64,000 nt of DNA from a phage, in sequence record PZ347775.1; one strand, given 5' to 3'. Position 1 is the first letter of the stretch. Each line of letters begins with the position of its first letter. Below the pieces are notes generated by a model. The model saw only the letters and a list, made by a program, of their open reading frames with translations. It was not told the origin of the DNA and ran no database searches. This document shows, piece by piece, positions 1 to 59,267 of the stretch. Made by a program: the position numbers and the translations under genes.

Positions 1-329
1 TGGACAGTACGAGAACCAAAGTTTCCTTGACCATCTAACAAAGGAAAGTTATTATTCCAAGTATTAGCCATCAAAGCCCCCGCGTCTTGCGCAGAGTTTT
101 CACCATGATGATATCCAAGGTCAGCTACACCACCTGCAATAGAAGCGAGTTTGTGAAACTTATCTTTATTTCCTCGCGCCAAATCAAGAGCTCGAGCAAT
201 AACAAATCGTTGGACTGGCTTAAATCCATCAATCATATTTGGAATAGCACGATTTTCAACCGTGTACATAGCATAAGCCAATGCTTCATTATCAATGATA
301 CTTTTTAAATCGCGATTATTCAGTTGCAT
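1..329 (-). CDS. 52: DNA topoisomerase II medium subunit gp52, N-terminal part (gene continues beyond window start)
   Basis: Minus-strand ATG at 327-329; translation MQLNNRDLKSIIDNEALAYAMYTVENRAIPNMIDGFKPVQRF matches the GyrA-like N-terminus of T4 gp52. Confidence 0.85.
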   Translation of the reverse strand, partial: MQLNNRDLKSIIDNEALAYAMYTVENRAIPNMIDGFKPVQRFVIARALDLARGNKDKFHKLASIAGGVADLGYHHGENSAQDAGALMANTWNNNFPLLDGQGNFGSRTV

Positions 330-2390: not shown

Positions 2391-2597
2391 TCAATAATCC
2401 GCTAAAAGATCGACGATTGCATCACGAAGACACTTATTCGCAATACGCTTAAGAGCAATTTCAGTTTCTGGAGCATTTTGAATAATCATTGAATTCAATT
2501 CAGCCTCAGCAAACTGAAGTTCTTTGACTAATTCAGCTTTATATTTTCCTTGCCCTTTCTTAGCTTTTGCTCGTTTTAATTCAGCTGTAGTAAACAT
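2391..2597 (-). CDS. hypothetical protein (68 aa)
   Basis: ATG at 2595-2597 preceded by conserved GGAGAATAAA cassette and early promoter; track ORF runs through the promoter. Confidence 0.5.
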   Translation of the reverse strand: MFTTAELKRAKAKKGQGKYKAELVKELQFAEAELNSMIIQNAPETEIALKRIANKCLRDAIVDLLADY

Positions 2598-2631
2598 TTT
2601 ATTCTCCAAATCCGCATCAGTTGATAGTTGT

Positions 2632-2661
2632 ATAGTACCACAGTCCTTGTGGTTTGTAAAC
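2632..2661 (-). promoter_or_regulatory. T4-type early promoter
   Basis: -35 GTTTAC (2656-2661), 18-nt spacer containing palindrome ccacaaggactgtgg, -10 TACTAT (2632-2637). Confidence 0.5.
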
Positions 2662-2677
2662 CGTTTTGTGAAAATTT

Positions 2678-3235
2678 TTAAATGGAAAGATACCATCCGT
2701 TGTAGTTGCTTTTTCTTACAACTTTACGAAGGTCTTCTCTATCACCGATGAACTTCGGAGTGTACTGGATGACACCTGGATGAATTTCTTTAGTGTTGAA
2801 TATAATTATACAGTCAGCGACTTGGTGATTCAGAATGGGCCCTAGATTTATTCCAGAACCGTATGGATACTCTCCGCTGCATCCGGTTGTTACCGAAATC
2901 CAACGTGAGTCAGTTTGGTGTGTCTTAACTTCTACACGAAGCCCGCAATATCTTGGATGCGCCAATACATCCCATGCGTATGTATACGGGTCATTAACAT
3001 CCTCTTGGCCTTTGTTAACATACCCGCTCAGCCAATCTGCTACAAAAAACTCTGCATACACAGCGATACGGCATCTTTCGATAACTTCTGCTTTATCCTG
3101 ATTAGGATTTTGTTTTAAAGAGTATCTTGCTGTATCAGCAATTTTGACCTTCATTTCACTAGTCAAATCATTGTTCGATAGGGTAAATGTTGGAATCTGA
3201 AATAGTCTCTGTAAACCCGGATTCGTTTTCTGCAT
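2678..3235 (-). CDS. denB: DenB, endonuclease IV (dC-specific ssDNA endonuclease)
   Basis: 185-aa ORF, T4 DenB length; synteny immediately upstream of rIIB region. Confidence 0.8.
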   Translation of the reverse strand: MQKTNPGLQRLFQIPTFTLSNNDLTSEMKVKIADTARYSLKQNPNQDKAEVIERCRIAVYAEFFVADWLSGYVNKGQEDVNDPYTYAWDVLAHPRYCGLRVEVKTHQTDSRWISVTTGCSGEYPYGSGINLGPILNHQVADCIIIFNTKEIHPGVIQYTPKFIGDREDLRKVVRKSNYNGWYLSI

Positions 3236-3300
3236 TAAACTTTCCTTTTACGTCGGAATCACTGATATTCATATAATAAATCATAGTTTCTCTTAAAACA

Positions 3301-3318
3301 AAAGGGCCGAAGCCCTTT
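3301..3318 (-). terminator. UUCG-tetraloop hairpin / intrinsic terminator
   Basis: aaagggccgaagcccttt; on the minus-strand RNA reads GGGC-UUCG-GCCC followed by U-rich tract. Confidence 0.5.
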
Positions 3319-3321
3319 ATT

Positions 3322-3516
3322 TTATTTGAATTGTGCAATTCTTTTCTCTAAACAATCTGCATAAGATTTCATTGAGATAAACTGCGAAAGCAGTAATTCT
3401 TGCTCGACTTCATTAATCGTTAGAAACTTTGTGCTTTCTAAAAATTTGCTTAGTGCATTAATTTTGAGCATTAATTGATCGTATTCTTCTTTTACTCGTG
3501 CTTGATAACCTAACAT
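3322..3516 (-). CDS. hypothetical protein (denB.1 position)
   Basis: 64-aa ORF with ATG and AAGGAAA SD. Confidence 0.5.
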   Translation of the reverse strand: MLGYQARVKEEYDQLMLKINALSKFLESTKFLTINEVEQELLLSQFISMKSYADCLEKRIAQFK

Positions 3517-3530
3517 AATTTTCCTTAGTT

Positions 3531-3546
3531 AAGGGCCGAAGCCCTT
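3531..3546 (-). terminator. UUCG-tetraloop hairpin at rIIB 3-prime end
   Basis: aagggccgaagccctt overlapping rIIB stop codon. Confidence 0.5.
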
Positions 3547-4483
3547 ATTTAAATTGTTCAGTAACGTCTTCAACTACTTCGTATTGGCAGGTACGCATTT
3601 TAGCATCGTTGTAATCAATCGGAATTGATACTACATCGCGAGGATGTACTTTAACTTTTACAACTCGGCTGGTTGAACTGCCAAAGTGACGAATATAAGA
3701 TTTAGAACACACATGCAGACCACGAGAACAAGTTTGTGTATCATCGTCATTCACACGAGTACGTGGCATTTTAACTACTTTACCAGGACTGTTATCAAAA
3801 GTATTTGAATGACAGTCAAAGTAATTACTGCGAACTACTTTCCAAGCATAGAAGTAACCGTCTTCTGTAATTTCAATATCGTTTGCTACCAAGAAATCAA
3901 AGAGTCGAGATACCGCTTTTTGGCTCGGGTTTTCTAACAGATTTTCCAAGAACGGAAAATAAAATTCAAAGTTTTCGCCTTTTTCCATCGAATCGAGAAT
4001 ACGATCAACTAAACCAGACCGCAATTCAATATTTTGATAGAACAAGCTTCCACCTTCAATTCGAACATCACCGGAAATATATTTTTCAACAGCGCGACGA
4101 ACGTTAATTTTTTGCGCCGCTTCTTCCAATTTATCTGCAACAAGCAGATTAAGAATTTCCTGGAAGTTTGAATGAGTATTAGGAGTTGCGTTATAAGTTA
4201 CACCGTCAACAGTAATTGAAATGAATTTTTTAGATGCATTCCAAATAATGTCAGATTTAGCAACTGGAGCAATAGCTGCATCGCTCTTAACTGTAACTGT
4301 AATGTCACCGCTAATGGTAACTTTGGAGCGCTCAGCTTCTTCAGCATTTTTCAAAACACGACGGATTGTGTCCACCGATACACCTTGCCAATCAGCCAAT
4401 TCCTGTTGGGTGTAATTACCACTTGAATACAGTTTGACAATTTCAGCTTGTTCGTTTTTGGTCAGGCATTTAATATTGTACAT
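3545..4483 (-). CDS. rIIB: rIIB membrane-associated protein
   Basis: 312-aa ORF, MYNIKCLTKNEQAEIVKLYSSGNYTQQELADWQGVSVDTIRRVL; T4 rIIB length and sequence. Confidence 0.92.
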   Translation of the reverse strand: MYNIKCLTKNEQAEIVKLYSSGNYTQQELADWQGVSVDTIRRVLKNAEEAERSKVTISGDITVTVKSDAAIAPVAKSDIIWNASKKFISITVDGVTYNATPNTHSNFQEILNLLVADKLEEAAQKINVRRAVEKYISGDVRIEGGSLFYQNIELRSGLVDRILDSMEKGENFEFYFPFLENLLENPSQKAVSRLFDFLVANDIEITEDGYFYAWKVVRSNYFDCHSNTFDNSPGKVVKMPRTRVNDDDTQTCSRGLHVCSKSYIRHFGSSTSRVVKVKVHPRDVVSIPIDYNDAKMRTCQYEVVEDVTEQFK

Positions 4484-4494
4484 AATTTTCCTTA

Positions 4495-6672
4495 TTAGGC
4501 CGCAAGGGCCTTCATAGTTTTAGCGATTTGGGAAACTTCATCATCACTTAAAGAATTGCGATAACCGATGAAGTCGGAAACAATACGGAATTTCTTGGTA
4601 AACTCAGCAACCATTTTATCACTGTTTTTTAAAGCATTACGTGATAATTCATCAAAAAGATTAGTTACGGTCCAGATGTCATGACCGATGGTATCTTTTC
4701 CACCATTGAAATATACACCCCGCAATGAACTAACCATATTACCAAGGCGAGTATATTCTTCGGAAACTTCATCTGTACTGAAATATTTCATCATAAAATT
4801 AAGTTCAGGATACTTAATAATTTTATCAATATATCGCTGAGCTGAACTTGAATAACCTACATACTTATCATAATCTACATCGTCAAAAGCATCTACATAT
4901 AAATCACGCAGAGTTTCAAAAATACATTGGCACTGACCAAGTTCTTTTACCTTTTTCTGCAAAAGTGGACGAATAACATAAAATTCATTAATGCCAATAA
5001 GATTAGCCATACGGGTCAAAATACTCGTAGATGGATTACAAAGCGATGTAGTACCATCCATAGAGAAAATATCAGAACGATGCATATATGCTACATAACC
5101 AGTAATTTCATCTGCTTCTGATGTGAGCGTAAACAGTTCCTCTTTTTCCCAGCGCCCGTCTTTAATTTCAAACTTAAATGCAGTAGCAGTTTTAGGACGA
5201 GGAGCTGCGCTTTTTACTACCTTTGGAATATAACTTTTAACTAAAGCTTCGATTTCTGACAAATAATGAATGTTAACTTCATCACTTTCAAACATTGCCA
5301 TAATGTCAGGAAGCAAATCAATCTGCGATTCTACTTCTGGATTAATAAACAGAAGCCGCTCATTGTGATGAATATTTAAGGTGTTATTAAATTCGCTATC
5401 ATCTAATGCACGTGCTAATCCACGGACAATATTAACACGATTTTTAGTATTATCAATAACAATATTAATTTTTGACGTATTAATACCAAACAGACGATAG
5501 CTTGACGCAACGGCTGAAGTTTCATGGCTTTGCTTAATGCGTTTCAGTCGAGGGTCAAGATTTACTTCATACACAACCCCTGCATTGCATAACTTACTGT
5601 CAGGTTCAAACATACTCTGCATCTTTTTATATGACAGATTTTTAGTCGTGAATTTGACTGAATTGCTAATCATATAATCTCGGGCAGAATATCCCATCTT
5701 CATCAATTCACGGTATGTATGACGAGGAGATGTAGATTCTTTAAATCGTTTTACATCTTCATTAAACGCCTGCTCACTGAGCTCTTTAACACGCTCAATA
5801 ATATTTTTACGAGTACGATCATCTAGTGAAAGAGCCTCACGCGATGGGGCAATATCAAGTGAACCCATTGGAAACTTAATGTAATTCACTTCATTGCGGA
5901 TGCTTAACCAGTTACGATCTCTAATAACACCTTCGATAGGATAAACAATGCCGCCATAGATAGCATACAATCCACCGCGATCTGGCCAGTATCTTTCTGG
6001 ATTTACGCCGTAATAATCATCAAAATCCGGAAAATAATCAATTTCGCGGTCAAGACCGTTAATGATAGCCAAATCTTTGAATGGTCGCATAATATAAGAA
6101 ACTTCATAAGCAAAGTTTCTAAAGTCTTTTTCTTCAACTGGAACTACGATTTCAATACCAGTTTTATCATCTGGACCCATTTCTTTTACGAATGTAGGTT
6201 TAATCTGTGGACCATCACCATCCATGTAAGCTACATAACCACGAATTTCACCTTTATGATATGAAGTAATACTAAATGTATCAGTATAACTAAACGGAGA
6301 TTTAGAACCTAAACCAAATCCACCAATGAAATCATTAGATTCAGCCTTAGATGAACTAAAGTATGAATTATACAACCCAGGAGAATTATCATCACCCTGA
6401 ATATCAAAATCGCTCATACCTGGACCAAAATCTCGGCAAACAAATCGCGGATCTAATCGTCCTGGAACTTGAATGATAAATTTTTCAGGATTTCCATTAA
6501 GAGCATGGGCATCAATCATGTTGGTAATCAATTCACGGACTACTGCGCGAATCTTGTTTGTATACAAATCAGATGACAGAATTTTAAATACTTTAGGAGA
6601 CGCTGTGATGCTAAATGCTTTTGATTTAGAACCATTACCAAGAATTGTTTCTTTTTCAGTGGTGATAATCAT
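4495..6672 (-). CDS. rIIA: rIIA membrane-associated protein (GHKL-type ATPase-like N-terminus)
   Basis: 725-aa [54 protein letters not shown]; T4 rIIA length and sequence. Confidence 0.95.
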
Positions 6673-6682
6673 AATTTCCTCA

Positions 6683-6886
6683 TTAATTCATATTGCGTTT
6701 AATAACTTCAGCAACTTCTAGTAGTTCATCTTTAGTTGCGGTGTCGGATTGAATTTTATCTCTAATATCCTTAAAGCGGTTTTTAAACTCTTCGGCTTCT
6801 CCCATATCGAAAAAGCGTTGAATGATTCTATATTCTCGATGAACTGCTTTATCAAAAAGTTCTAAATTTACTTTATATGATTTCAT
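6683..6886 (-). CDS. hypothetical protein (rIIA.1 position)
   Basis: 67-aa ORF directly upstream of rIIA. Confidence 0.55.
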
Positions 6887-6911
6887 TTCAATATCCTCAT
6901 TTGCCCAATTA

Positions 6912-6941
6912 ATTATACCACATCCTTGTGGTAAAGTAAAC
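6912..6941 (-). promoter_or_regulatory. T4-type early promoter upstream of rIIA.1/rIIA
   Basis: -35 GTTTAC (6936-6941), 18-nt spacer with ccacaaggatgtgg palindrome, -10 TATAAT (6912-6917). Confidence 0.5.
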
Positions 6942-8758
6942 TATTGGCTCATCCATTCTTTACGAAGGTCAGCATTATCTCCCATAAGCATTTCAAAAAG
7001 CTCTTTCCAGTTCTCAGGAAGTTTAACAACATCATATACTGGATTTTGAATCATCTCACGATATTCAGATTTTTCCAAAGAGCCAAGTCCTTTAATATAA
7101 CGGATGCTATGTTTAGGTAGAGCATCTTTGGCACTCTCATATTCAGCGACTGTATAAAACCATTCTTGTTTTTTACCGACCTGAGCGATGATTACAGGAG
7201 TTTTGACAAAGCGAATTCTTCCTTGTTCAAACAGTTCTGGCCAATTACTAAAAAATCCGAGCAGAGAAGGATAAATGCTTCCTAGACCATCATGGTCAGC
7301 GTCAGTCATAATGGCAATATTGTGATAATTCAAGTTTTCGGCTTTTTCACCAAGAACTAATCCAGTGATTGCGCAAATATCAAACAGTTCTTTGTTTTTA
7401 AGCATATCAGCATAAGACATACCCCAACTGTTGAGAACTTTACCACGCAATGGATAACCACCATGAAGTTCTTTATCACGAACATCAATAAGATATCCGA
7501 TAGCAGAATCACCCTCAGTCAAGAAAAGAGTAGTATCAGCATCTTTACCGCAAAGATTCGCTTTAATATGTTTATGAACCTTAGCTTTAGAAGCCTTTTT
7601 AGCTGCTTTAGTTTCTGCTGCTTTTTCTGCCGCCAATTTACGAGCCAAAGCAGCTTCAATAATTGGCATTAAAATTGCTTCATTATTTAAAATAGCACGT
7701 GAAATCTTTTTAGCATCAAGCTGAATATGACTACGAATTTCACCAAATGGAGAAGTCAAACGCTCTTTAGTTTGAGAATCAAATCGCATGTTTTTCATAT
7801 CACGAACAAACATAACGATAGTCAAACATTCTTTAACACGTGCTTTAGTTACATCAATTTTGAACTTACGTTTGATTTGTGGAATAAGGTCTTCACAAAT
7901 ATCATCCATAACACAGTCAATGTGATGGCCACCATTCTTAGTATGAATGTTATTAACGTATGTTAATTGACGAAAACCGTCGGGTGAACGACCGACCGCA
8001 ATAGAACAGTTTTCCTGTTCTTGAACGATAGCATGCTCATCATATTGGCGTGCATATTTCTTAAAATTACCCTGAACCTTTTTACCGTTAAAGGTAAATT
8101 GAATATCAGGATAAACTACTGCAAGTGTCTGGAGACGATCTAGTGTAATGTCAAGATAAACTTGAGATAGCTCATTAGTTTCAAATGACATAAAATCAGG
8201 AATGAAAGTAACGCGAGTTCCTTTCCATTTTCCAGGAATATCTTCCCATGATTTATTTTCCATGCCATTTGAACAACGAACTACAATATTATTTTGACCA
8301 TCGCCAGTTTCACCGACAAACATCACAGAAAAAATGTTAGTTAAACTAGAACCAACACCGTTCATACCGCCAGTGACGCGTTCTTTGTCATCACCGAAGT
8401 TACCACCTGCTTTTGGAATAGTCCAGGCAGCAACAGGACCAGGAATTTCTTCACCAGTAGGTGTTTTAACCATCGCTTGTGGAATACCACGACCGTTATC
8501 TTCAACTGTTACTTGATTGTTTTTAATAGTAACATTAATTTTATTCGCGAATTTAAACTTAGTACGAATACCTTCATCTACTGAGTTATCGATAATTTCA
8601 TCAATAAGCTTAACAAGACCAGGTACATACTGAACACTTTCCCATTTACCAAACAGAAAGCGCTCATGCATTTCATTAGCAGAAGAACCAATGTACATGC
8701 CGCTACGCTTTTTGATATGTTCAATATCGCTCAGAATTTTAATTTCATTCTTAATCAT
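6941..8758 (-). CDS. 39: DNA topoisomerase II large subunit, single fused polypeptide covering T4 gp39 plus gp60
   Basis: 605 aa from ATG at 8756-8758; GyrB-like ATPase N-terminus and Toprim-like region (LTEGDSA) in one uninterrupted frame. Confidence 0.9.
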   Translation of the reverse strand: MIKNEIKILSDIEHIKKRSGMYIGSSANEMHERFLFGKWESVQYVPGLVKLIDEIIDNSVDEGIRTKFKFANKINVTIKNNQVTVEDNGRGIPQAMVKTPTGEEIPGPVAAWTIPKAGGNFGDDKERVTGGMNGVGSSLTNIFSVMFVGETGDGQNNIVVRCSNGMENKSWEDIPGKWKGTRVTFIPDFMSFETNELSQVYLDITLDRLQTLAVVYPDIQFTFNGKKVQGNFKKYARQYDEHAIVQEQENCSIAVGRSPDGFRQLTYVNNIHTKNGGHHIDCVMDDICEDLIPQIKRKFKIDVTKARVKECLTIVMFVRDMKNMRFDSQTKERLTSPFGEIRSHIQLDAKKISRAILNNEAILMPIIEAALARKLAAEKAAETKAAKKASKAKVHKHIKANLCGKDADTTLFLTEGDSAIGYLIDVRDKELHGGYPLRGKVLNSWGMSYADMLKNKELFDICAITGLVLGEKAENLNYHNIAIMTDADHDGLGSIYPSLLGFFSNWPELFEQGRIRFVKTPVIIAQVGKKQEWFYTVAEYESAKDALPKHSIRYIKGLGSLEKSEYREMIQNPVYDVVKLPENWKELFEMLMGDNADLRKEWMSQ

Positions 8759-8810
8759 CACTTATCCTCGTTTGATTTCGGGAATATTATACTCCGGTAA
8801 TCATAAAGCT

Positions 8811-8829
8811 AAAGGCCCGAAGGCCTTTT
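8811..8829 (-). terminator. UUCG-tetraloop hairpin
   Basis: aaaggcccgaaggccttt just upstream of topoisomerase gene start region. Confidence 0.4.
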
Positions 8830-9088
8830 ATTTAAAACGGATAGTCGAATCCTTGAAGAATAGACCAGAACATACGGTTCCTTCTACTTTCTGCCCTGTA
8901 GGTCCAATAGCACGAAATCCAGTATGCTGGAAATCATTTTCAGAGCAACCGAACCAATTATATCCAGTGATTTCAATATTAGTAAAACCACTTGAAGACA
9001 AAACTTTGGTTGCATTATCAGCATCAGTACATCCTACTAAAGATACTGCTAATACTAATGCCGCGATAGAACGATTAACATATTTCAT
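8828..9088 (-). CDS. small lipoprotein / exported protein
   Basis: ATG MKYVNRSIAALVLAVSLVGC: signal peptide with lipobox LVGC. Confidence 0.5.
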   Translation of the reverse strand: MKYVNRSIAALVLAVSLVGCTDADNATKVLSSSGFTNIEITGYNWFGCSENDFQHTGFRAIGPTGQKVEGTVCSGLFFKDSTIRFK

Positions 9089-9092
9089 AATT

Positions 9093-9470
9093 TCACTCAA
9101 ATTTAATGGCTTGAAGGAGACTAATAATTCTTAAGCGACTTCTTTCATCTTTAACTGTAAAAGAAAGAGGGTCACCAGATTTCATAGTGATGGTGCATCC
9201 AAAATCAAAATCTTCTGTAACTTCTTCGAAGAAGTCAAATTCTTCATCATAAATTAGAACATTACTCTGAAAACTGTGAAGAATTTTTCCATCATTTCCA
9301 GATGCTGTACTAATCATTGTAACATTATGGCCTTTCATATCTTCAACGATAAATTCGCTTGTAGATATTACGGCATTAATAGAACCATTCCTATAAATAG
9401 AAGAAAGCAGATATTTCTTTTCTTCACCTTCGCGAACACGATATTTCTTACCGATTTTAAACATAATCAC
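9093..9470 (-). CDS. hypothetical protein
   Basis: 125-aa ORF; synteny between gene 39 and dexA. Confidence 0.5.
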   Translation of the reverse strand: MIMFKIGKKYRVREGEEKKYLLSSIYRNGSINAVISTSEFIVEDMKGHNVTMISTASGNDGKILHSFQSNVLIYDEEFDFFEEVTEDFDFGCTITMKSGDPLSFTVKDERSRLRIISLLQAIKFE

Positions 9471-9645
9471 CCTTTAAGTAAGTCGTAAAATCCACCATTC
9501 ACATGCTTAGGAGCAGAAGGCAGACGAGTAGACAAACGATGACATTTAGGGCAAACATCATTTTCTCGTTCAGAAATCTTTTTAATTTTTTCATATTCAT
9601 GCCCACAATCTTCGGATTGGCATTTATAATCATACAATGGCATAA

Positions 9646-10065
9646 TTATTCCTTAAAGTGTGCTTTCAACATCTGATACAAGGACCATGCCTGTTCATTA
9701 TTTTCAATAGTAACTTTCATGACTGGGAATTCTGTGAAATCTTCTATTTGTTCTTGCTCTTCCTGCTCTTGTTCTTCAGATGCCTGGTATGGATTTTCCA
9801 CTTCATCAAAGAACCCAGCTTCGTTAGTAGAAAGCCAGATAAAGTTTTCGTCAAGGATATCACCATGTGTTGCATATCCAACTGTGCCAGTAGATGTCAC
9901 AATTTTAGTAGGACGCCCGTAATAGTCCACATCTAAAATTTTAAAAGGTTCCATACCTAAACGTCGTGCATAGATTCCGTTATCAGTATGGTCTTTAATA
10001 AAATTTTCTTGAGCTTGTTTATTTTTAAATTGATACCATTTATTAACTTCAAATCTAATAGCCAT
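9646..10065 (-). CDS. hypothetical protein with acidic EQ-repeat segment
   Basis: 139-aa ORF; internal [14 protein letters not shown] tract. Confidence 0.5.
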
Positions 10066-10280
10066 TAATAAATTTCCTTCCAGTAAGTTGTGCCATCTTC
10101 AGTAATTTCACGGAATACACCGTAAATTGGTTGTTTATCGCCGACTTTCTCATACACATAAACCGAAGTCAAGTGAGTAAACTTAACAGTATGTTCCTTT
10201 TGAACCACTACCAAATCTGGATCAAATAATACATCTTCAAATTCGTCATTAGTGCAGTTCTGAACAATTTTACGTTTCAT
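10065..10280 (-). CDS. hypothetical protein (71 aa)
   Basis: ORF abutting upstream gene stop. Confidence 0.5.
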
Positions 10281-10293
10281 TACAATTTCCTCA

Positions 10294-10563
10294 TTAATTG
10301 AACAGTGGAGCGATGCGTTTCAGAAGAGTAGCAGCACCTTTGGCAAATTTTACATCATGAAAAACAGTTTCTTCTTCCGTTACAACACGAACTTTAATGT
10401 TTTCACAATCCCAATTTTTACGAACAATCTTCAAAAGCTGCAGTAAATCTTTACATTCAGCAATATCGATAACACATCCACGAGAATCTTCCATTATCGC
10501 ACGATAACCATAAGCCATACCATAATCGTTGAAAGATTGTTCGATGATAATTAAGTTTTCCAT
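10294..10563 (-). CDS. hypothetical protein (89 aa)
   Basis: ATG preceded by conserved GGAGAATAAA cassette; track start lies in the SD. Confidence 0.5.
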   Translation of the reverse strand: MENLIIIEQSFNDYGMAYGYRAIMEDSRGCVIDIAECKDLLQLLKIVRKNWDCENIKVRVVTEEETVFHDVKFAKGAATLLKRIAPLFN

Positions 10564-10670
10564 TTTATTCTCCAAGTTGTTTTCTGTATCAGTAGTTGAT
10601 ATTGATATAGTACCATAATCAACTACTGATGTATATAGTTTTATGAAAAAATTTTAAACTTTATGCAAAT

Positions 10671-11090
10671 TTATGCTAAAGCTGCTTCGCACCATTTTTT
10701 AATTTGGAATTCAGGAACTACCATGAACTGGCCTGCAAAAACAATATTGTAGAGCTTGACGCCATCTTCTACCCAACGGTCCGAAATAAAACCAGCGACT
10801 TGATTCGTTGTCCACGGAGTTCCATCTGTTGCCGCCGCAATTGTGAATTTATGGTCTTTTACAACTAAAACTGAAGAACAAAGTTTCCATTTAAATGCGC
10901 TTTCTTCTGGCTCAATGAATTGGCTTGAGACATAACCAATGTTACCATCAGCGTCACGAACTTTAACCTCGTTACGACCAAAAACTGGATCACTTACAGA
11001 AAGAACTTCAACCAGCTTTCCTGCAACTTTAGAACGAGAAGCAACGGATACATATACGTAATCACCAGTAGAGAGATTTACAATATTCAT
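10671..11090 (-). CDS. hypothetical protein, paralog of adjacent 162-aa protein
   Basis: Shares RSK-AGKLVE and WVEDGVKLYN-VF motifs with 11107..11595. Confidence 0.55.
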   Translation of the reverse strand: MNIVNLSTGDYVYVSVASRSKVAGKLVEVLSVSDPVFGRNEVKVRDADGNIGYVSSQFIEPEESAFKWKLCSSVLVVKDHKFTIAAATDGTPWTTNQVAGFISDRWVEDGVKLYNIVFAGQFMVVPEFQIKKWCEAALA

Positions 11091-19187: not shown

Positions 19188-19397
19188 TTAAATTACATGA
19201 CTATTTATAATAAATTCTTGCGGAACGCTAAAATATCCAATTTTAGTTAATATAACAACATCACCGTTAATAACTACCGGAGAATAATCGGCTGGAGCAT
19301 TAAACTTCCAATGAGCTCTAATATTATATCCATCAGAACCAAATGCTCGACTAGCCGGTCTCCCGGCTTTTTGCCATGCATAAAAATCAAATTTCAT
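19188..19397 (-). CDS. hypothetical protein (69 aa)
   Basis: ORF between soc and gene 56. Confidence 0.5.
   Translation of the reverse strand: MKFDFYAWQKAGRPASRAFGSDGYNIRAHWKFNAPADYSPVVINGDVVILTKIGYFSVPQEFIINSHVI
19202..19209 (-). promoter_or_regulatory. T4 late promoter TATAAATA for soc
   Basis: Plus-strand tatttata at 19202-19209, about 30 nt upstream of soc ATG. Confidence 0.55.
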
Positions 19398-19594
19398 TTT
19401 GAATGCTCTATAATTAATTTTAAGGCTTCTTCATGCACCTTACCTAATTGTATATGTCCAGTTTTAATTGTGTAAGCTTTGTGGAGCTGATTAGATAAGA
19501 GCTCACATACGAGCTCCTTGTCATAATTTTTAAATAGCTGGTCAATACGTTTCTTGTGGGCTTTCTTAAGCTGGCGTTTATTTAAACGAGCCAT
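19394..19594 (-). CDS. hypothetical protein (66 aa, basic)
   Basis: ORF between soc and gene 56. Confidence 0.5.
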   Translation of the reverse strand: MARLNKRQLKKAHKKRIDQLFKNYDKELVCELLSNQLHKAYTIKTGHIQLGKVHEEALKLIIEHSK

Positions 19595-20112
19595 TAATAA
19601 CCTCGGTCTTGACGAGCGAAGTTTTCAGCATTTTTCAGATAATAAAGTTTAAAGATTTCTTCAGCCGTAAGACCAAGACCTTGGAACATGTTCAGAACGA
19701 AATGAAGAATATCAATCATTTCGAATTTAATTTCCAACTGGTCTTGTGGAGACAAATCAGTAATTAGAGTTTCACGGCGTTCACCATGTTGAGCTTTCCA
19801 AGGCTTCCATACAGCAGATGCATCTTTTTCGCCATTGCTCATACCGCCAAGAGATGTCAGAAGTTCACGGAATTCATCGTCAATATAATCTTTCTGATTA
19901 CGTAGCCAATCAACAACTTCACCAGCAGTAGCCAAATCATCAGGATGACGATTATATTCAGGTTTATCTTTAGCTAAACGAACTTGCAGAGATTTCTGCA
20001 TATCAAGCATAACCTGCAGCGGGTCTTTTTCATCACAGAGAATATCCCAGTATTCATTTTGAGCTTTATCAGCGCCTTCGATCAGATGACTACATTCGTT
20101 GAAATGTGGCAT
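19594..20112 (-). CDS. 56: gp56 dCTPase/dUTPase (MazG-like dCTP pyrophosphatase)
   Basis: 172-aa ORF; T4 gp56 length; synteny. Confidence 0.88.
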   Translation of the reverse strand: MPHFNECSHLIEGADKAQNEYWDILCDEKDPLQVMLDMQKSLQVRLAKDKPEYNRHPDDLATAGEVVDWLRNQKDYIDDEFRELLTSLGGMSNGEKDASAVWKPWKAQHGERRETLITDLSPQDQLEIKFEMIDILHFVLNMFQGLGLTAEEIFKLYYLKNAENFARQDRGY

Positions 20113-20113
20113 G

Positions 20114-20764
20114 TTATTTTTCCTTTCTTATGAAGTTTTCTATCATATGTCTATAGCAGATATTAGGATAACCTGCCTTGACAGCTATTTTATTAAATTT
20201 TGTGCGCTTAGGTCTATTATTATAAACCCATAATTCATAAAGCGCATCATAACTATTCCATATTTCTCCTCGCCTAGGATTTGGTAAACCGTATCGAGGC
20301 GAATTTTTACCGCTAAATCTTCCTTTTCGGGCTTTACTCATATTAGCCTTGGCTTCATCGGATATAATTTTACCTTTATGAGCTAGACGCATTTTGGCTT
20401 TAGTTTCTTCTGGGGTCTTTTTGCCTTTAATCCATGACGGCTTGCCATATCTAGGATTATTTTCACCCGAGAAAAGAACAGAGTTTTGGATTTTAAGAGT
20501 TTCTATTAATCTACTTGTTAATTTAACACCTTTATTATATCGCATTAAATTTACAGCATAATGCAATCCTCTCACATCTGGATATATTTTAGTTAATAAT
20601 CTATGAGCTATAAAATGCTCACGCGCAGTTAACTCAACAAGATTGTTTTTGTCATCTGCTCCTCCTATACATCTAGGAATTATATGATGGCGTTCTTTAT
20701 ATCCGCCAAGATGCCGGCATTTAGCTTTTGTAATTAAAGCCGAGTAAATTTTTTGGTAATTCAC
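20114..20764 (-). CDS. free-standing HNH homing endonuclease with NUMOD-like DNA-binding repeats
   Basis: N-terminal His-Me finger ERHHIIPRCIGGADDKNNLVELTAREHFIAH; repeated basic K-G-K modules; GTG or nearby start with AAGGA SD. Confidence 0.8.
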   Translation of the reverse strand: MNYQKIYSALITKAKCRHLGGYKERHHIIPRCIGGADDKNNLVELTAREHFIAHRLLTKIYPDVRGLHYAVNLMRYNKGVKLTSRLIETLKIQNSVLFSGENNPRYGKPSWIKGKKTPEETKAKMRLAHKGKIISDEAKANMSKARKGRFSGKNSPRYGLPNPRRGEIWNSYDALYELWVYNNRPKRTKFNKIAVKAGYPNICYRHMIENFIRKEK

Positions 20765-23467: not shown

Positions 23468-23496
23468 ATAATAACATGTTTAAAACAAAAGTAAAC
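23468..23496 (-). promoter_or_regulatory. T4-type early promoter
   Basis: -35 GTTTAC (23491-23496), 17-nt spacer, -10 TATTAT (23468-23473). Confidence 0.5.
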
Positions 23497-23750
23497 TATT
23501 TTATTTCCTCAAGTTCGTTAATCAATAAAAGTTCTCTGACGCTAAAAATAAAGAAAAATGTGTTCCCATCAACCAGAGCATGACCGCTAATAGAACACCC
23601 TCTGCGGAATTTAGAAACTTCACAATCTAGAACTGTAAAGGGTTTTAATCCTATGACTTTAGCTGTGCGTCTATTCAGTTCACAACCACTCGCGAATTTT
23701 TCCAAATCTTCTTCTGATTTAAACTGATATTCTCTATTAACTAGCATCAT
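23496..23750 (-). CDS. hypothetical protein (84 aa)
   Basis: ORF with early promoter upstream. Confidence 0.5.
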   Translation of the reverse strand: MMLVNREYQFKSEEDLEKFASGCELNRRTAKVIGLKPFTVLDCEVSKFRRGCSISGHALVDGNTFFFIFSVRELLLINELEEIK

Positions 23751-26113: not shown

Positions 26114-27269
26114 TTAACTGATCTAGGTCAGTTTCTAAATCAGCTGCTGATTTACTTTTACTTTCTGGAGATTTAAATTTTTCAACCTTTGAGTTAATCA
26201 ATTCATCAACTTCAGCTTCAACAATTTCATTACTATCAATAGCACCTAACTGATAAGCGCGTTTAATAGCATCTCGGAATGGTTGATGCTTAAATAAAGG
26301 ACCCCAGAATGTAGTGCAATTGGTATCTTTTGCACGCCAAGATTTTTCTTCGCGAATCATCTCGCCGGTTTCTTCATCAAGAAATTCACGAGCATACCAA
26401 CCATTTTTAGGTTTTACTACAAATCCTAGTTCAAGAGCCATATCTAACAATCCAGAATAAGGATCGATACCACCGTCAAATTTAACATCAATAAAGAATT
26501 TACTTTTTTCTTTGACGGTACGAGATTTTTCTACATTTAGAACAAATTGATACCCCTGAAGATCAGAACCATCTTTAATCTGACGCTTACCGATAATGAA
26601 TACAGTATCAGCTGAATACATTACGCCTGTACCACCTGTCATCACGGTTTTACTAAACATTTCAATTGTTTCAATTGTGTGGTTAACCGCAACACATGGA
26701 ATATTTTTAATGCTAAAATAAGGAGTAACAATACGGAATAATGACTTCAGTGATTTAGCACGAGTCATATCTGCCACAGATTTTTCATTCAAGGCATCTT
26801 CCGTTTCTTTCTTAGAAGCCATATTACCGATTGAGTCGATGAATACAATAACTTTTTCACCGCGCTCAATAGCTTCAAGCTGATTCACCATATCAATTTT
26901 CAGTTGTTCAACTGACTGGATTGGTGTATGAATTACTCGTTCCGGGTCAACTCCCATGGATCGCAAATAAGCTGGAGTAATACCAAATTCACTATCATAA
27001 AATAGACAAACCGCGTCAGGATATTTGTTCAAATACGCCGCAACCATAGTCAAAGACATATTTGATTTAAAGTGTTTAGAAGGACCTGCAAAAATGGTTA
27101 AACCAGACTGCATACCACCATCAATCGCGCCGGAAATAGCGATATTGAGCATTGGGATTTTTGTACGGATTACATCCTTTTCATTAAAGAATTTAGATGT
27201 AGTCAGTTCAGCAGTCATTTTAGAAGTGGAAGCTTTAATCAAACGGGATTTTAAATCTGCAATAGACAT
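26088..27269 (-). CDS. uvsX: UvsX RecA-like recombinase
   Basis: 393-aa ORF MSIADLKSRLIKASTSKMTAELTTSKFFNEKDVIRTKIPMLNIAISG; T4 UvsX. Confidence 0.95.
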   Translation of the reverse strand: MSIADLKSRLIKASTSKMTAELTTSKFFNEKDVIRTKIPMLNIAISGAIDGGMQSGLTIFAGPSKHFKSNMSLTMVAAYLNKYPDAVCLFYDSEFGITPAYLRSMGVDPERVIHTPIQSVEQLKIDMVNQLEAIERGEKVIVFIDSIGNMASKKETEDALNEKSVADMTRAKSLKSLFRIVTPYFSIKNIPCVAVNHTIETIEMFSKTVMTGGTGVMYSADTVFIIGKRQIKDGSDLQGYQFVLNVEKSRTVKEKSKFFIDVKFDGGIDPYSGLLDMALELGFVVKPKNGWYAREFLDEETGEMIREEKSWRAKDTNCTTFWGPLFKHQPFRDAIKRAYQLGAIDSNEIVEAEVDELINSKVEKFKSPESKSKSAADLETDLDQLSDMEEFNE

Positions 27270-27322
27270 TCATTTTTTCCATAGGCATCATTATATTTTC
27301 CTCACTGGTTAAAGATAGAGTA

Positions 27323-27350
27323 ATTATAACACAATAAATTTAGGCATTAA
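27323..27350 (-). promoter_or_regulatory. candidate middle promoter for uvsX (MotA-box-like TGCCTAA plus TATAAT)
   Basis: Minus-strand ttaaTGCCTAAatttattgtgtTATAAT, 11-nt gap; one mismatch to TGCTT core. Confidence 0.35.
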
Positions 27351-28195
27351 TCAACCGCTATTGGATGAATAGCATTAAACTTATGAAACGCTTCTGATTT
27401 TTCTTTGCGTGAAACACACATGCGAAGAACCTTTAATGGCTCGTCTTCTTCACCTAATGATTTTCGTTTTTCAATATTAGAAGTTTTCCAACGAGCTTGC
27501 TCTGGAAACTCTCTATTGATTTGCTCAAGAGCTCTATTATGTTTTGAATTACTACGAATTGAACTACATCCACCGGGGGCTTGTGCTTTTCCAGATACAA
27601 CTAGATATTTGAACAAGGCCAAATGCGGATAACCTTGATTAATTAAATTGAGAAATGCATACATATCTTCGCATAAATCAATTTTTCCATACCCAATTTG
27701 TTCTGTTGTAAGTTTTCCTAAATCATACCAGGTATTCGTGAATCCGTATGAATTTTCACGATAATTACCCCAAGATGAAGTAATTTTAAAAATAGGTAGA
27801 CGAGCATGACCATGATAATACCCGCAATCCATGGCATCTTCAACGTATTGAATCAATTCATAGAACTGTTCACGAGTTAACTGATTAATTTTATCTACGC
27901 AGCGACGATCATCTTTCTTTCGCATTGAACTCATACGAATAGTAGTATCATCATCAATCATCCAAATTCGTTGACCTGCATACATATCAGTAATTGCTTT
28001 ACGAGTTCCAGCAATTCCATTAACATCATCAGGAATAGTTATAATTTTAGCCCTAGACCCGTAAGCGTCATAATAAGCTTTTTCTTCATGTTCACGTACT
28101 ACAATATGAGGTTCATAATCAGTCGGAAACATATCAAGGGCAGAAACTGCCCCTACGCGTTGATAGCTTGGAATTACGAATTGAATCATTTCCAC
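27347..28195 (-). CDS. glycosyltransferase at the beta-gt locus (GT-A-like, DDD motif); candidate HMC-DNA glucosyl/gentiobiosyl transferase
   Basis: 282-aa ORF, IWMIDDDTTI DxD motif; does not resemble T4 beta-gt; occupies position between uvsX and 42. Confidence 0.6.
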   Translation of the reverse strand: MEMIQFVIPSYQRVGAVSALDMFPTDYEPHIVVREHEEKAYYDAYGSRAKIITIPDDVNGIAGTRKAITDMYAGQRIWMIDDDTTIRMSSMRKKDDRRCVDKINQLTREQFYELIQYVEDAMDCGYYHGHARLPIFKITSSWGNYRENSYGFTNTWYDLGKLTTEQIGYGKIDLCEDMYAFLNLINQGYPHLALFKYLVVSGKAQAPGGCSSIRSNSKHNRALEQINREFPEQARWKTSNIEKRKSLGEEDEPLKVLRMCVSRKEKSEAFHKFNAIHPIAVD

Positions 28196-28926
28196 TCACC
28201 GTTATAATCTTTTTTCGCAATATGGGTTTCGCCAGTTTTCCACCAATGGTCAACCAAATAAAAATGACGGGAATACACATGAAGGCTCCCGACATTCCAT
28301 ATAATGGAACCTGCTTTATACTGACGAGTTGAATCACCTGCATTCAAATCAGATACTAATTTATCTAGTACGTATTTTTGCCATGCATAATCATTACGGA
28401 ATCCGAAGACCACGTCATTTGAACGCATGTTAACCACTGCATTAATTTTCTTATCACGAATCAGGTACTGTACTGTATTAGTACACATGAAATCTGACAT
28501 GCCATCTTTATTGTAGTCAAATTGCATGGATGGACGAGTATAAATCATGATACCACGTCGAGAATCAGGATTTTGACCAAGTTCAGCTAAACACATATCA
28601 TATTGGGCATAGTTATCTTCTGACCAGATGGCCCAACCATAATTCGAGTTAATTTCGCCTTTAGAAGATGCTACCTGCTGCCAAATCTTTGGTGTTTCAC
28701 CTGGAATATCTTTAACAAACAGACTTTGAGACTTATACCATTCAAGTTCACGCTGAATGTATTCATCATTAAGAGCGCCAAAAATAAAAGGTTCATCTGC
28801 TACAAATGATGCACCAATAATTTCAATAGTTTTAACCCCGGTTTTATCAATTACGAAATCTTTTTCCTTTAATGCAAGACCCAAATCAAGACGGATTTCT
28901 TCAACTGTCATATAATCGTTAATCAT
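28186..28926 (-). CDS. 42: gp42 dCMP hydroxymethylase
   Basis: 246-aa ORF MINDYMTVEEIRLDLGLALKEKDFVIDKTGVKTIEIIGASF; T4 gp42. Confidence 0.93.
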   Translation of the reverse strand: MINDYMTVEEIRLDLGLALKEKDFVIDKTGVKTIEIIGASFVADEPFIFGALNDEYIQRELEWYKSQSLFVKDIPGETPKIWQQVASSKGEINSNYGWAIWSEDNYAQYDMCLAELGQNPDSRRGIMIYTRPSMQFDYNKDGMSDFMCTNTVQYLIRDKKINAVVNMRSNDVVFGFRNDYAWQKYVLDKLVSDLNAGDSTRQYKAGSIIWNVGSLHVYSRHFYLVDHWWKTGETHIAKKDYNGEWK

Positions 28927-29729: not shown

Positions 29730-29966
29730 TCAAATACAAGTAGTAATTACTCCAGTAGTGCTTACACAGGTATTACCTAATTGAACACCCAGCGTTCCAT
29801 TAGTATTCATATGAAGATTATCATCAATTTTTGTTGATACTTTACCATTCATGTGAATAATAGTATTAGATTCAATCACATTCTGAGTGTCATTTTCAAT
29901 ATCAATAAATGGAACAGTTGCTAATGCAACTAAACACACTGCTAAACAACCATAAACAATTTTCAT
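29730..29966 (-). CDS. small exported protein (78 aa)
   Basis: ATG at 29964-29966 after GGAGAATAAA cassette; N-terminal signal-like hydrophobic segment; track ORF runs through promoter. Confidence 0.5.
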   Translation of the reverse strand: MKIVYGCLAVCLVALATVPFIDIENDTQNVIESNTIIHMNGKVSTKIDDNLHMNTNGTLGVQLGNTCVSTTGVITTCI

Positions 29967-30000
29967 TTTATTCTCCAAATCCGTATCAGTTGATAGTTGT

Positions 30001-30030
30001 ATAGTATCATGGAAGAACGGGAATGTAAAC
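30001..30030 (-). promoter_or_regulatory. T4-type early promoter
   Basis: -35 GTTTAC (30025-30030), 18 nt, -10 TACTAT (30001-30006). Confidence 0.5.
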
Positions 30031-30118
30031 AGTTTTGTGAAAAAATTTTTAATGAATTTACAGGACCTAGAATCATCTATTTTTCCTAAGTATAGATTTA
30101 TATTACTTGTATGAAAAA

Positions 30119-39799: not shown

Positions 39800-41000
39800 A
39801 TTTTGTAATAATGTCAAACTGTTCTTTAAAGCAGAAGCTTGAATCTTGATGCTGATACAAAAATTCATAAGCTTTTTCGCGTTCACGGTCATAAAGAGCT
39901 CGGTCAGATGACAGTTCTTTAATACGCTCAAATGTTGATTCCATGTCATTTTCATCAAACCAAACGATACCGCTATCATGAGAAATTAACGGAGTATTAT
40001 CAACACGGAATTTTAAATTTTCACCAGTAGATTTCCAAAATACTGGAATTGTTCCGCATGCACCAAGCTCGAGATGAGTGTATTCTAAAGAACGTTGTAG
40101 ATATTTTTTATCTAATTTACTCAGCTGATAACCAAATCCGGATTTACTCATACGTTCAAGCATTTCGCTATTTACATAACGGTCGAGAATTTGCGTTGGC
40201 AAATTAGGAGCAATTTTAATTTGGTCTACCTGATGAAGACGATAATACTCATATGGAATTCCTTTTTCTTTAATAGGAATGAACGCTGGAGAACGTTCCA
40301 GACCTTCCATAATAGTACTCAATCCCGCAGGTTTAAGATGTTTTTCATGAAAATCAAACATCTGATAAAAGCCTTTCCATGTAGTAGTACGACCAATCCA
40401 ACGGTTGATATTCATGTTAATTTCAGAAACATCTTTCCAGTAGGTTGATCGAACCTTCGCAATATCCATAGGAGGCTGAAAGTTATATACGGTCGGTGCT
40501 TCTTCAATATCATCAAACAGAGAAACTGTTTCTGGATACCATTCTTTCATCAGAACTTTATTAAAATCACCATTATCAGAATGACTAAAAATAACATCAG
40601 CTCGACGAACAGTTTCTTCTAATCCCAAATTTCGGCGCAAAGAAAGAGAAGAATGGTCATGTTGATAAACTACAACACGAACCGAAGGTTTAATGTTATC
40701 AATAATTTTTTTATAGTTATTAATAGTGTCTTCTTCGACTGAAGTAGCAGGAACTGAATTGATAACTAGAATATCACAATCATTTACCAGCTTAAGTGTT
40801 TTATCGTATTCTTTTGCCAATAAAACCGGAATTGAAAATGATTTATAATCATGCGCGCAATTACGGGTAAATGATTTATCTTTAGCATAAACCAAAGTTA
40901 CTTCATGACCATTTTTAATAAACCAATCACGCTGCTCAAGAGAAAATTTAGTTACACCACAACCTTCAAGACCTCGAGCCATAAAAATGCATACTTTCAT
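39798..41000 (-). CDS. a-gt: alpha-glucosyltransferase (HMC-DNA)
   Basis: 400-aa ORF CIFMARGLEGCGVTKFSLEQRDWFIKNGHEVTLVYAKDKSF; T4 alpha-gt. Confidence 0.92.
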   Translation of the reverse strand: MKVCIFMARGLEGCGVTKFSLEQRDWFIKNGHEVTLVYAKDKSFTRNCAHDYKSFSIPVLLAKEYDKTLKLVNDCDILVINSVPATSVEEDTINNYKKIIDNIKPSVRVVVYQHDHSSLSLRRNLGLEETVRRADVIFSHSDNGDFNKVLMKEWYPETVSLFDDIEEAPTVYNFQPPMDIAKVRSTYWKDVSEINMNINRWIGRTTTWKGFYQMFDFHEKHLKPAGLSTIMEGLERSPAFIPIKEKGIPYEYYRLHQVDQIKIAPNLPTQILDRYVNSEMLERMSKSGFGYQLSKLDKKYLQRSLEYTHLELGACGTIPVFWKSTGENLKFRVDNTPLISHDSGIVWFDENDMESTFERIKELSSDRALYDREREKAYEFLYQHQDSSFCFKEQFDIITK

Positions 41001-41050
41001 TTAATATCCTCATTGTTTTGGTTTATTTTACCAAAAATTTATAAAGCAAT

Positions 41051-44069: not shown

Positions 44070-44244
44070 TGAGTTTAATTTCCTTAGCAACTGAACTAAA
44101 TACAGCACGATCACAAATCATCTGTTTATGTAACTTGAGTATAAGATAATAAACTTCAAAACCGTTTACATAAGTAACACGAACAACATTACCATTAATA
44201 AAATAATATTGTCCCTTTTTAATTTCTTTATCAACCACAATCAT
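44062..44244 (-). CDS. hypothetical protein (60 aa)
   Basis: ORF with early promoter upstream. Confidence 0.45.
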   Translation of the reverse strand: MIVVDKEIKKGQYYFINGNVVRVTYVNGFEVYYLILKLHKQMICDRAVFSSVAKEIKLNG

Positions 44245-44274
44245 ATCAAATCCTCAAAGGCAATTCATATGTTA

Positions 44275-44304
44275 ATAATACCACAGTTTGAACTTCTTGT
44301 AAAC
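44275..44304 (-). promoter_or_regulatory. T4-type early promoter
   Basis: -35 GTTTAC (44299-44304), 18 nt, -10 TATTAT (44275-44280). Confidence 0.5.
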
Positions 44305-44384
44305 AACTTTGTGAAATTATTTTAGGGAATGATAAGAAGGGAACGATAGCTTAGAATGGTAATATACAGAATGTGTGAAAGAAA

Positions 44385-45039: not shown

Positions 45040-45510
45040 TTAATCATGTTTCCACACCCCATCGGTATTTGACCAAAGTCGCTGATTATCTGAACCTCGC
45101 CACAGCTTTTTGGTCGGAAGATTTTTCTCATACTTCCCATCAATAATAACATCAACATATTTAAGCATTTCTAGTTGTTTAATATCTTCAAACTTATATC
45201 CTGTCCACAACCAAATGCTTTTATTCGGATAAAGATTTTTTACTGTTTGAACAATGCAATGAACAACATCTCGGTTATCTGGATAGAGAGGGTCTCCTCC
45301 AGTTATAGTTAATCCTTCTATATAATCATTATTCAAACATTTAATTAATTGTTCTAGTGTTTCACCAGTGAATGGAACGCCATTTCTAGCATTCCATGTT
45401 GATTTATTATAACACCCTTCACATTTATGCAAACAACCTGTAACGAAAAGAACGACCCTGCATCCAGGGCCATTCACAAAATCACAGGGATAAAATCTAT
45501 CGTAATTCAT
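45040..45510 (-). CDS. nrdG: NrdG anaerobic ribonucleotide reductase activase (radical SAM)
   Basis: 156-aa ORF with CxxxCxxC cluster motif. Confidence 0.9.
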   Translation of the reverse strand: MNYDRFYPCDFVNGPGCRVVLFVTGCLHKCEGCYNKSTWNARNGVPFTGETLEQLIKCLNNDYIEGLTITGGDPLYPDNRDVVHCIVQTVKNLYPNKSIWLWTGYKFEDIKQLEMLKYVDVIIDGKYEKNLPTKKLWRGSDNQRLWSNTDGVWKHD

Positions 45511-54463: not shown

Positions 54464-54991
54464 TTATGCGAGTACCGTCTTTAACCGTTCTTCAAACTTC
54501 CGAAGAGTATTTTGGCGTTCAGCTCTTTGCTTTTTGTAAGTTTCAATACGCTCTGAAATGAGAGTGTATCGTTCATTTACTGATTCTTTCATAAAATCAG
54601 GAATTTCACGAGAAGCTTTAATCTCGTCAAATTTATCAATAACAGCTTGCTCTTCAGCAATTAAGTTATCATACATTAAAATATCTTTCTTGATAAACTC
54701 AATATCTTCTTGAGTTACACGAGATAACTTAGATGCTTTATCCTTTTTGTACTGTTCATTAGTATCACGAGACCAATGTAATGTACGATTTTTATTCGTA
54801 TTTTTGTAAATTTCGACAATACCAATCTCATCAATAATAACGATCCAATTCCAACGGGATTTGTAAATTTGTCCTCCATCAACAGTGATTTCACCTCCGA
54901 TTGAGATGTCGTTAAAGAACTTGCTTTGTGCTTCAGATTTAAATTTACCATCATTGTAATTTACCAAGTTGAAAATATCTTTAGCGTTCAT
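54464..54991 (-). CDS. hypothetical protein (175 aa)
   Basis: ATG after early promoter/SD module. Confidence 0.55.
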   Translation of the reverse strand: MNAKDIFNLVNYNDGKFKSEAQSKFFNDISIGGEITVDGGQIYKSRWNWIVIIDEIGIVEIYKNTNKNRTLHWSRDTNEQYKKDKASKLSRVTQEDIEFIKKDILMYDNLIAEEQAVIDKFDEIKASREIPDFMKESVNERYTLISERIETYKKQRAERQNTLRKFEERLKTVLA

Positions 54992-55019
54992 TTTCTGTTC
55001 CTCCGTAGTTGATAGTTGT

Positions 55020-55049
55020 ATAGTACCACAGAGGAACAGTCTTGTAAAC
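55020..55049 (-). promoter_or_regulatory. T4-type early promoter
   Basis: -35 GTTTAC (55044-55049), 18 nt, -10 TACTAT (55020-55025); same module as at 1907-1936. Confidence 0.5.
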
Positions 55050-55051
55050 CA

Positions 55052-55366
55052 CTAAAAGAAACTTCTTTCGCAATTTTTTCCACTGAACCATGCGCTCACT
55101 GCTTTCTTAGTCTCAGGAGCAGTGTTATCCATAAACCATTCAAAGGCAGCCTTTTTATGATTCTGGAGGGCTTCTCGGGCTTTAATCTGCTCACGGTCTA
55201 TTAACACTAACATATGAGCCTTTCTTGTCACCATGGGCTTCTTATGATTTTTTGAATACTCCCAGTCATTTGTCCATCGCATTGTCGTTGCGAACTGAAA
55301 TACAGCTTCTTTAATCTTAGTTTCGTAAATTTCACGAGCCTTTGAGTATAACATCACTACCTCCAT
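55052..55366 (-). CDS. hypothetical protein (104 aa)
   Basis: ORF. Confidence 0.5.
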   Translation of the reverse strand: MEVVMLYSKAREIYETKIKEAVFQFATTMRWTNDWEYSKNHKKPMVTRKAHMLVLIDREQIKAREALQNHKKAAFEWFMDNTAPETKKAVSAWFSGKNCERSFF

Positions 55367-57121: not shown

Positions 57122-57182
57122 TTTATTCTCCAAATCCGTATCAGTTGATAGTTGTATAGTACCATACCCCCTTTGTGTTGAT

Positions 57183-59265: not shown

Positions 59266-59267
59266 AA

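Follow-up and report, generated by a model that had tools for sequence, protein, structure and literature searches.

The DNA topoisomerase of phage T4 is made up of three subunits, its large-subunit gene being split into genes 39 and 60, whereas T2 and T6 have a single gp39 (PMC2988022, PMC11461880, bioRxiv 10.1101/2022.08.31.505936). The question raised by the locus studied here, which lies within a 64-kb stretch of phage DNA (record PZ347775.1, referred to below as the window), is which of these two states it represents and what accounts for it. The uninterrupted gene 39 has already been described (Bonocora et al. 2011; Manning & Atkins 2022), and the literature just cited also covers the 64-nt segment of the parental gene and the MobA cassette as the cause of the difference. 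Coordinates of the features discussed are collected in Table 1.

Table 1. Features of the gene 39 locus and of related loci elsewhere in the window
Feature	Position	Strand	Basis or remark
Gene 39, topoisomerase II large subunit (GyrB/ParE-like)	6941..8758	-	Complete uninterrupted CDS, 605 codons plus stop
Shine-Dalgarno GAGG	8766..8769	-	7 nt upstream of ATG 8758; direct reading, putative function
Upstream intergenic signals: hairpin and TATAAT	8786..8827	-	By eye
ATPase (GHKL) and transducer region, aa 1-380	7619..8758	-	Motifs, Pfam, match to PDB 9imj_A
Toprim catalytic glutamate motif EGDSA, aa 415-419	7502..7516	-	On the gp39 side in T4
64-nt 'parental' segment, codons 474-494	7277..7340	-	blastn break points; predicted MobA recognition and nick region inside
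Toprim acidic cluster DADHDG, aa 486-491	7286..7303	-	On the gp60 side in T4, ending at the take-off codon
Gly491-Leu492 codons GGT CTA, contiguous	7283..7288	-	In T4, a 50-nt gap between GGA and UUA
Gene 52, first 109 codons (GyrA-like medium subunit)	3..329	-	Cut by the window edge
Free-standing HNH/NUMOD3 homing endonuclease, 216 aa	20114-20764	-	phrog_655, E = 1e-59; 34% identical to T4 MobD
Beta-glucosyl-HMC-alpha-glucosyltransferase, 282 aa	27347-28195	-	phrog_842, E = 2e-89; Pfam TAGT; replaces T4 segA and beta-gt
Seg-like free-standing endonuclease, 239 aa	55437-56156	-	phrog_314, E = 2e-30; weakly similar to T4 SegA and SegF

A single open reading frame occupies positions 6941..8761 of the minus strand (ORF list for 5000-11000), encoding 606 aa if read from a GTG or 605 aa if read from the ATG at 8758. 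A run of 605 sense codons has a chance probability of P = 4e-22 (stop-codon probability of 0.078 per codon on the minus strand), and the frame can therefore be accepted as real. The ATG is the likely start of the gene: it was preferred over the GTG at 8761, which was dropped, because of the spacing of the putative Shine-Dalgarno sequence and because the N-terminus that it yields, MIKNE, is identical to that of gp39 in T2, T6 and T4. Further upstream on the minus strand, a GGCC-TTCG-GGCC hairpin followed by a run of T's (8825-8811) and a TATAAT hexamer (8791-8786) could be discerned; by way of suggestion only, these may be a putative terminator of gene 39.1 and a putative early promoter of gene 39, respectively. 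A scan for sigma-70 promoters and terminators over positions 6600-9200 returned counts no higher than the shuffled expectation, and the upstream hairpin and hexamer were not listed by this consensus scan.

The gene is 1818 nt long and free of indels in the window, T2, T6 and KFS-EC3. Its product differs from T2 gp39 (AP018813, CDS 2447..4264) by one substitution (F70L; 604/605 residues identical), from T6 gp39 (AP018814; YP_010067157; PDB 8YLU and related entries) by two (D173T and Q526H; 603/605), and from that of KFS-EC3 by one residue. Both T2 and T6 have the same 605-aa, 1818-nt gene with the same contiguous Toprim domain, flanked by the same neighbours (rIIA, rIIA.1, 39 and 39.1) and containing the same 64-nt segment at the MobA site, which in the window departs from T2 at 3/64 nt and from T6 also at 3/64 nt. 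At the nucleotide level gene 39 was 95.8% identical to T2 and 96.5% identical to T6, while the closest DNA in the phage collection was that of KFS-EC3 (98.7% over gene 39). Codon differences were almost exclusively synonymous (74 synonymous and one non-synonymous versus T2, 60 and two versus T6), which indicates that gene 39 is under strong purifying selection.

Alignment to T4 revealed the same enzyme, with the same flanking genes, distributed over two cistrons. Residues 1-473 correspond to residues 1-473 of T4 gp39 (466/473 identical) and residues 472-605 to residues 27-160 of T4 gp60 (128/134 identical), so that residues 1-473 and 477-605 show 95-99% identity to the conserved parts of the two T4 proteins. 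In contrast, neither the 43-aa tail of T4 gp39 (FEEKEDGEW...RKNL) nor the ~30-aa head of T4 gp60 (MKFVKIDSS...) has a counterpart in the window. The preliminary description had proposed a single continuous frame of 605 aa at 6941-8758; an ATG-started frame with exactly these coordinates is present on the minus strand (the description gave no strand), and the alignments it suggested, to T2 and T6 gp39 and to T4 gp39 plus gp60, bear the proposal out.

With blastn, window positions 4484-7276 aligned to T4 1-2793 and window positions 7341-9090 to T4 3911-5661. Homology thus breaks at 7276/7277 and 7340/7341 in the window, and at 2793/2794 and 3910/3911 in T4, with 64 nt in the window (7277-7340) occupying the place of 1117 nt in T4. 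The latter comprise the gp39 tail, mobA/60.1, the gp60 head, the 50-nt coding gap and 9 more nt, the break in homology lying 9 nt past the T4 landing codon. The point at which T4 splits 39 from 60 falls after Ala473 (window 7340-7342), where the frame of the window is continuous. At the site of the T4 gap the window reads GAT GGT CTA GGA AGC, whereas T4 reads GAT GGA, then the 50-nt gap (beginning with TAG and ending with GGA), then TTA GGT TCT; the matched GGA take-off and landing codons and the UAG of the T4 gap are absent from the window. While one frame does span the regions that T4 divides, as had been described, the division itself needs to be placed differently: it is located inside the Toprim domain and not between the ATPase and Toprim parts, leaving the glutamate of EGDSA in T4 gp39 and the acidic cluster DADHDG in T4 gp60. 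The gp39 of the window carries both motifs within one frame, with the Toprim glutamate and the DxD cluster on a single polypeptide.

A separate discrepancy was noted in the T4 reference (NC_000866), in which codons 326-328 of gene 39, directly before the QTK loop, read LIR as opposed to FDS in the window, T2 and T6. This difference amounts to a compensated -1/+1 frameshift (CGATTGATTCGTCAA versus CGATTTGATTCTCAA) and may stem from an old sequencing error in the reference; the LIR variant has been carried into PDB construct 8yo3.

Domain searches agreed with the assignment of the product to the GyrB-like subunits. Pfam models matched HATPase_c (PF02518; aa 47-149, E = 2e-9), DNA_gyraseB (PF00204; aa 250-384, E = 1.4e-13), which corresponds to the transducer region, and TOPRIM_C (PF16898; aa 519-604, E = 4e-7); the Toprim model PF01751 produced no score at E ≤ 0.001 on the 605-aa gp39. 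All three GHKL motifs could be located, namely an N-box (EIIDNSVDE, 54-62), a G1 box (DNGRGIP, 87-93) and a G2 box (GMNGVG, 131-136), followed by the transducer QTK loop at aa 329-331. In a PDB search, aa 406-603 aligned to Toprim-containing chains of topo II, topo IV and gyrase, and aa 1-380 to 9imj_A (a 386-aa chain entitled 'DNA topoisomerase (ATP-hydrolyzing)'), which by our reading is an ATPase-domain construct. The best PDB chain by phmmer was 8ylu_C, aligned over aa 1-605 with two substitutions (603/605); this chain is T6 gp39 from the cryo-EM structure 8YLU, an enzyme active in relaxation assays (PMC11461880). The artificial T4 gp39-gp60 fusion 8yo3_C was matched by phmmer in two blocks, 1-473 and 472-605.

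Full-length phmmer alignments were also obtained with human topoisomerase II alpha and beta, yeast Topo II, ParE and GyrB. Bacterial GyrB/ParE and the N-terminal half of eukaryotic topo II share the same order of GHKL ATPase, transducer with QTK loop and Toprim (EGDSA, DxDxD), with gp39 being distantly similar to them (E = 1e-59 for human Topo II beta, 2e-47 for ParE and 3e-36 for E. coli GyrB). T4 topo II relaxes DNA and does not introduce supercoils, which would be a further point of difference for the present phage enzyme. Gene 52 is cut off by the 5' limit of the window, which retains its first 109 codons, all of them identical in translation to T4 gp52 (109/109 aa, E = 3e-69 in tblastn), position 1 of the window corresponding to T4 164876 in blastn.

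Taken as a whole, the gene 39 product is, with high confidence, the GyrB-like subunit, with ATPase and Toprim domains, of a type IIA topoisomerase composed of gp39 and gp52, its enzymatic activity and subunit composition being extrapolated from published work on near-identical proteins. Together with gp52, the DNA-cleavage subunit, gp39 would form a heterotetrameric two-subunit enzyme as in T2 and T6, the structure and activity of which have been reported (PMC11461880). In such an enzyme, binding of ATP would dimerise the N-gate, the Glu/Asp cluster of the Toprim domain would coordinate the Mg2+ needed when gp52 cleaves the G-segment, and another duplex would then pass through the break in the G-segment. 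Translation of gene 39 is fully standard, without a coding gap.

Why the gene is in one piece can be addressed by looking for the parts of the element that divides it in T4. Neither the C-terminal extension (CTE) of T4 gp39, nor the N-terminal extension (NTE) of T4 gp60, nor 60.1 gave a tblastn match in the 64-kb window (E ≥ 0.39), and both halves of the 50-nt gap sequence, allowing up to 3 mismatches, were without a match across the whole window. More generally, none of the T4-type cassette features (mobA ORF, CTE/NTE, 50-nt gap with GGA codons, UAG and take-off stem-loop) was found. A T4 mobA fragment matched the window only at 20633-20695; this is a generic HNH motif within the unrelated free-standing endonuclease ORF 20114-20764, and the match was rejected as a mobA remnant. 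With 64 nt in place of 1117 nt and no component of the cassette in the window, the arrangement is indeed the non-T4 one without the splitting mobile element, and the undivided state of gene 39 is explained by the absence of the MobA homing-endonuclease cassette from this genome. T4 and a minority of its relatives have had 64 nt of gene 39 replaced by ~1.1 kb of this cassette, which adds a tail to gp39 and a head to gp60 and also brings in mobA and the 50-nt bypass gap.

Manning & Atkins described a 64-nt deleted region together with a diverged, element-encoded copy of it, homR, at 67-81% identity, and noted that in the T4 clade homR extends a further 9 nt past the gap (bioRxiv 10.1101/2022.08.31.505936). 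The break points between the window and T4 reproduce these published boundaries (the 64-nt deletion and the 9 nt of homR), and the identity of the 64-nt segment to the homR copy of the T4 cassette (35/48 nt, 73%) falls within the published range. The same preprint places the nick site, approximately, inside the homR-matching region. Relaying Bonocora et al. 2011, it further states that MobA nicks the uninvaded T2 gene in the segment equivalent to window 7277-7340, that repair after the nick copies the cassette in, and that the 50-nt gap, ~20 nt downstream of the nick, shields invaded genomes from being cut again (bioRxiv 10.1101/2022.08.31.505936). Judging by its sequence, the 64-nt segment of the window is probably still a MobA target site; as a MobA substrate, it would allow the cassette to enter this genome when a phage with intact MobA infects the same cell.

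The prevalence of the two states was assessed with a 2.6-kb query around gene 39, which matched 563 phage records. In 508 of them a single uninterrupted match spans at least 80% of the query, with identities of 95-99% in nearly every case, as against 43 records with the T4 cassette (T4 isolates, RB55, RB59, HY01, HY03, vB_EcoM_112 and others). On these counts the contiguous gene 39 is the majority state in Tequatrovirus, found in approximately nine in ten sequenced relatives. The record of phage ime09 labels the gene 'gp60plus39'.

Beyond gene 39, blastn against T4 showed that the window extends from inside gene 52 through rIIB, rIIA, 39, dda, 61, 41, uvsX, 42, 43, 45, 46 and 47, and continues via a-gt, 55, nrdD and the nrdC cluster to about tk.4/vs. 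Six sites without the T4 inserts were found in this alignment (19210-19630, 27258-28203, 40992-41015, 45490-45510, 46786-46789 and 58816-59770), the missing elements being segF, segA with beta-gt, mobB, mobC, the nrdD group I intron with I-TevII, and mobD. Counting mobA, all seven T4 homing-endonuclease genes of the corresponding region are absent, while two others of the phage's own are present. The HNH gene sits between gene 56 and gene 61 in place of T4 dam, a layout seen in ~32 phage records, and no Dam homologue was detectable in the 64-kb window (tblastn E > 0.5). The Seg-like gene, which had no Pfam match, is located between homologues of nrdC.9 and nrdC.10, where T4 has no insert. This difference in endonuclease content fits the known picture in which T-even genomes differ mainly by mobile endonuclease cassettes. 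The presence of a beta-glucosyl-HMC-alpha-glucosyltransferase gene indicates gentiobiosyl DNA modification of the T2/T6 type.

Several further differences from T4 were recorded in the same alignment. Gene 56 (dCTPase; 19594-20112, minus strand), adjoining the T4 segF site, had 76.5% DNA identity to T4, compared with ~95% for its neighbours. Small ORFs on the minus strand occupy segments that do not align to T4: that at 9093-9470 had phrog_622 (unknown function) as its top match (4e-29), with the goF-annotated phrog_13003 at only 9e-7; that at 23496-23750 matched phrog_2980 (goF, 2e-20), showing a similarly weak resemblance to goF; and that at 10671-11090 is a diverged motB-like gene (phrog_1671, 1e-50). 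T4 motB.1 and motB.2 are absent from the window. A 161-aa ORF at 57183-57668 (minus strand), with no T4 counterpart in that place, matched only the last ~150 positions of phrog_832 (RNA-polymerase ADP-ribosylase, E = 7e-24) and had no Pfam match. Families of 40-67-nt intergenic repeats were seen at 1874-1940, 2595-2656, 29964-30040, 44242-44314, 54983-55053, 57119-57180 and other positions; on the minus strand they resemble T4 early promoters (GTTTAC ... TATAAT), and in families D1 and D2 they have an RBS and a start codon just downstream. Over the first 25 kb of the window, no record of the phage collection exceeded 97.5% mean identity, and on this comparison the phage seems to be an unremarkable member of the genus that has not been deposited before.

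We consider it very probable that the window comes from a Tequatrovirus (T-even) phage and that its gene 39, of the T2/T6 type, represents the uninvaded, 'parental' state of the topoisomerase gene. It appears very unlikely that the gene instead reflects either a footprint-free restoration after MobA invasion or a natural MobA-resistant allele, produced by synonymous changes in the target without a bypass gap. As regards resistance, T2 is the only substrate reported to be nicked, and the sensitivity of the window segment to MobA is not certain because of its three synonymous differences from T2, one of which (codon 486, GAC versus GAT in T2) lies close to the approximate nick position. If true, a restoration or a resistant allele would add modestly to what is known of the arms race that pits MobA against the topoisomerase.

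Secondary restoration, by which an ancestor with the MobA cassette would have had its gene re-fused through precise loss or through recombination with an uninvaded relative, is highly improbable when considered separately. It has precedents in the 'hit and run' cases of Aeromonas phages, where the gene has become a single ORF again (Manning & Atkins, bioRxiv 10.1101/2022.08.31.505936), and the high mosaicism of T-even genomes lends it some plausibility, phage LH2 having the T4 cassette yet sharing the window's HNH gene in the place of dam. However, the published re-fused genes retain CTE/NTE sequence, while gp39 of the window is indel-free relative to T2 and T6 and bears no trace of a CTE or NTE; the insert retained at the MobA site of 'hit-and-run' re-fused Topo2L genes was not found here. 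The 64-nt segment is moreover of the T2/T6 type, being only 73% identical to T4 homR. Had recombination with an uninvaded phage replaced the gene without leaving a footprint, the gene seen today and its function would be no different. That an assembly or consensus error masks a frameshift, a stop or the cassette is very unlikely: although the window is a single unverified sequence, nothing specific supports such an artefact, the same 1818-nt frame recurs in T2, T6, KFS-EC3 and hundreds of independently sequenced phages, the differences from relatives are almost all synonymous, unlike random errors, and a collapsed 1.1-kb cassette would not give a perfect T2-type junction.

Under the parental reading, the appropriate annotation for gene 39 is a single CDS for the topoisomerase II large subunit without programmed bypass, and the phage belongs with the majority of Tequatrovirus phages, those of the T2/T6 type. 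The allele described here would provide one more uninvaded example of the gene and a potential recipient in MobA homing.
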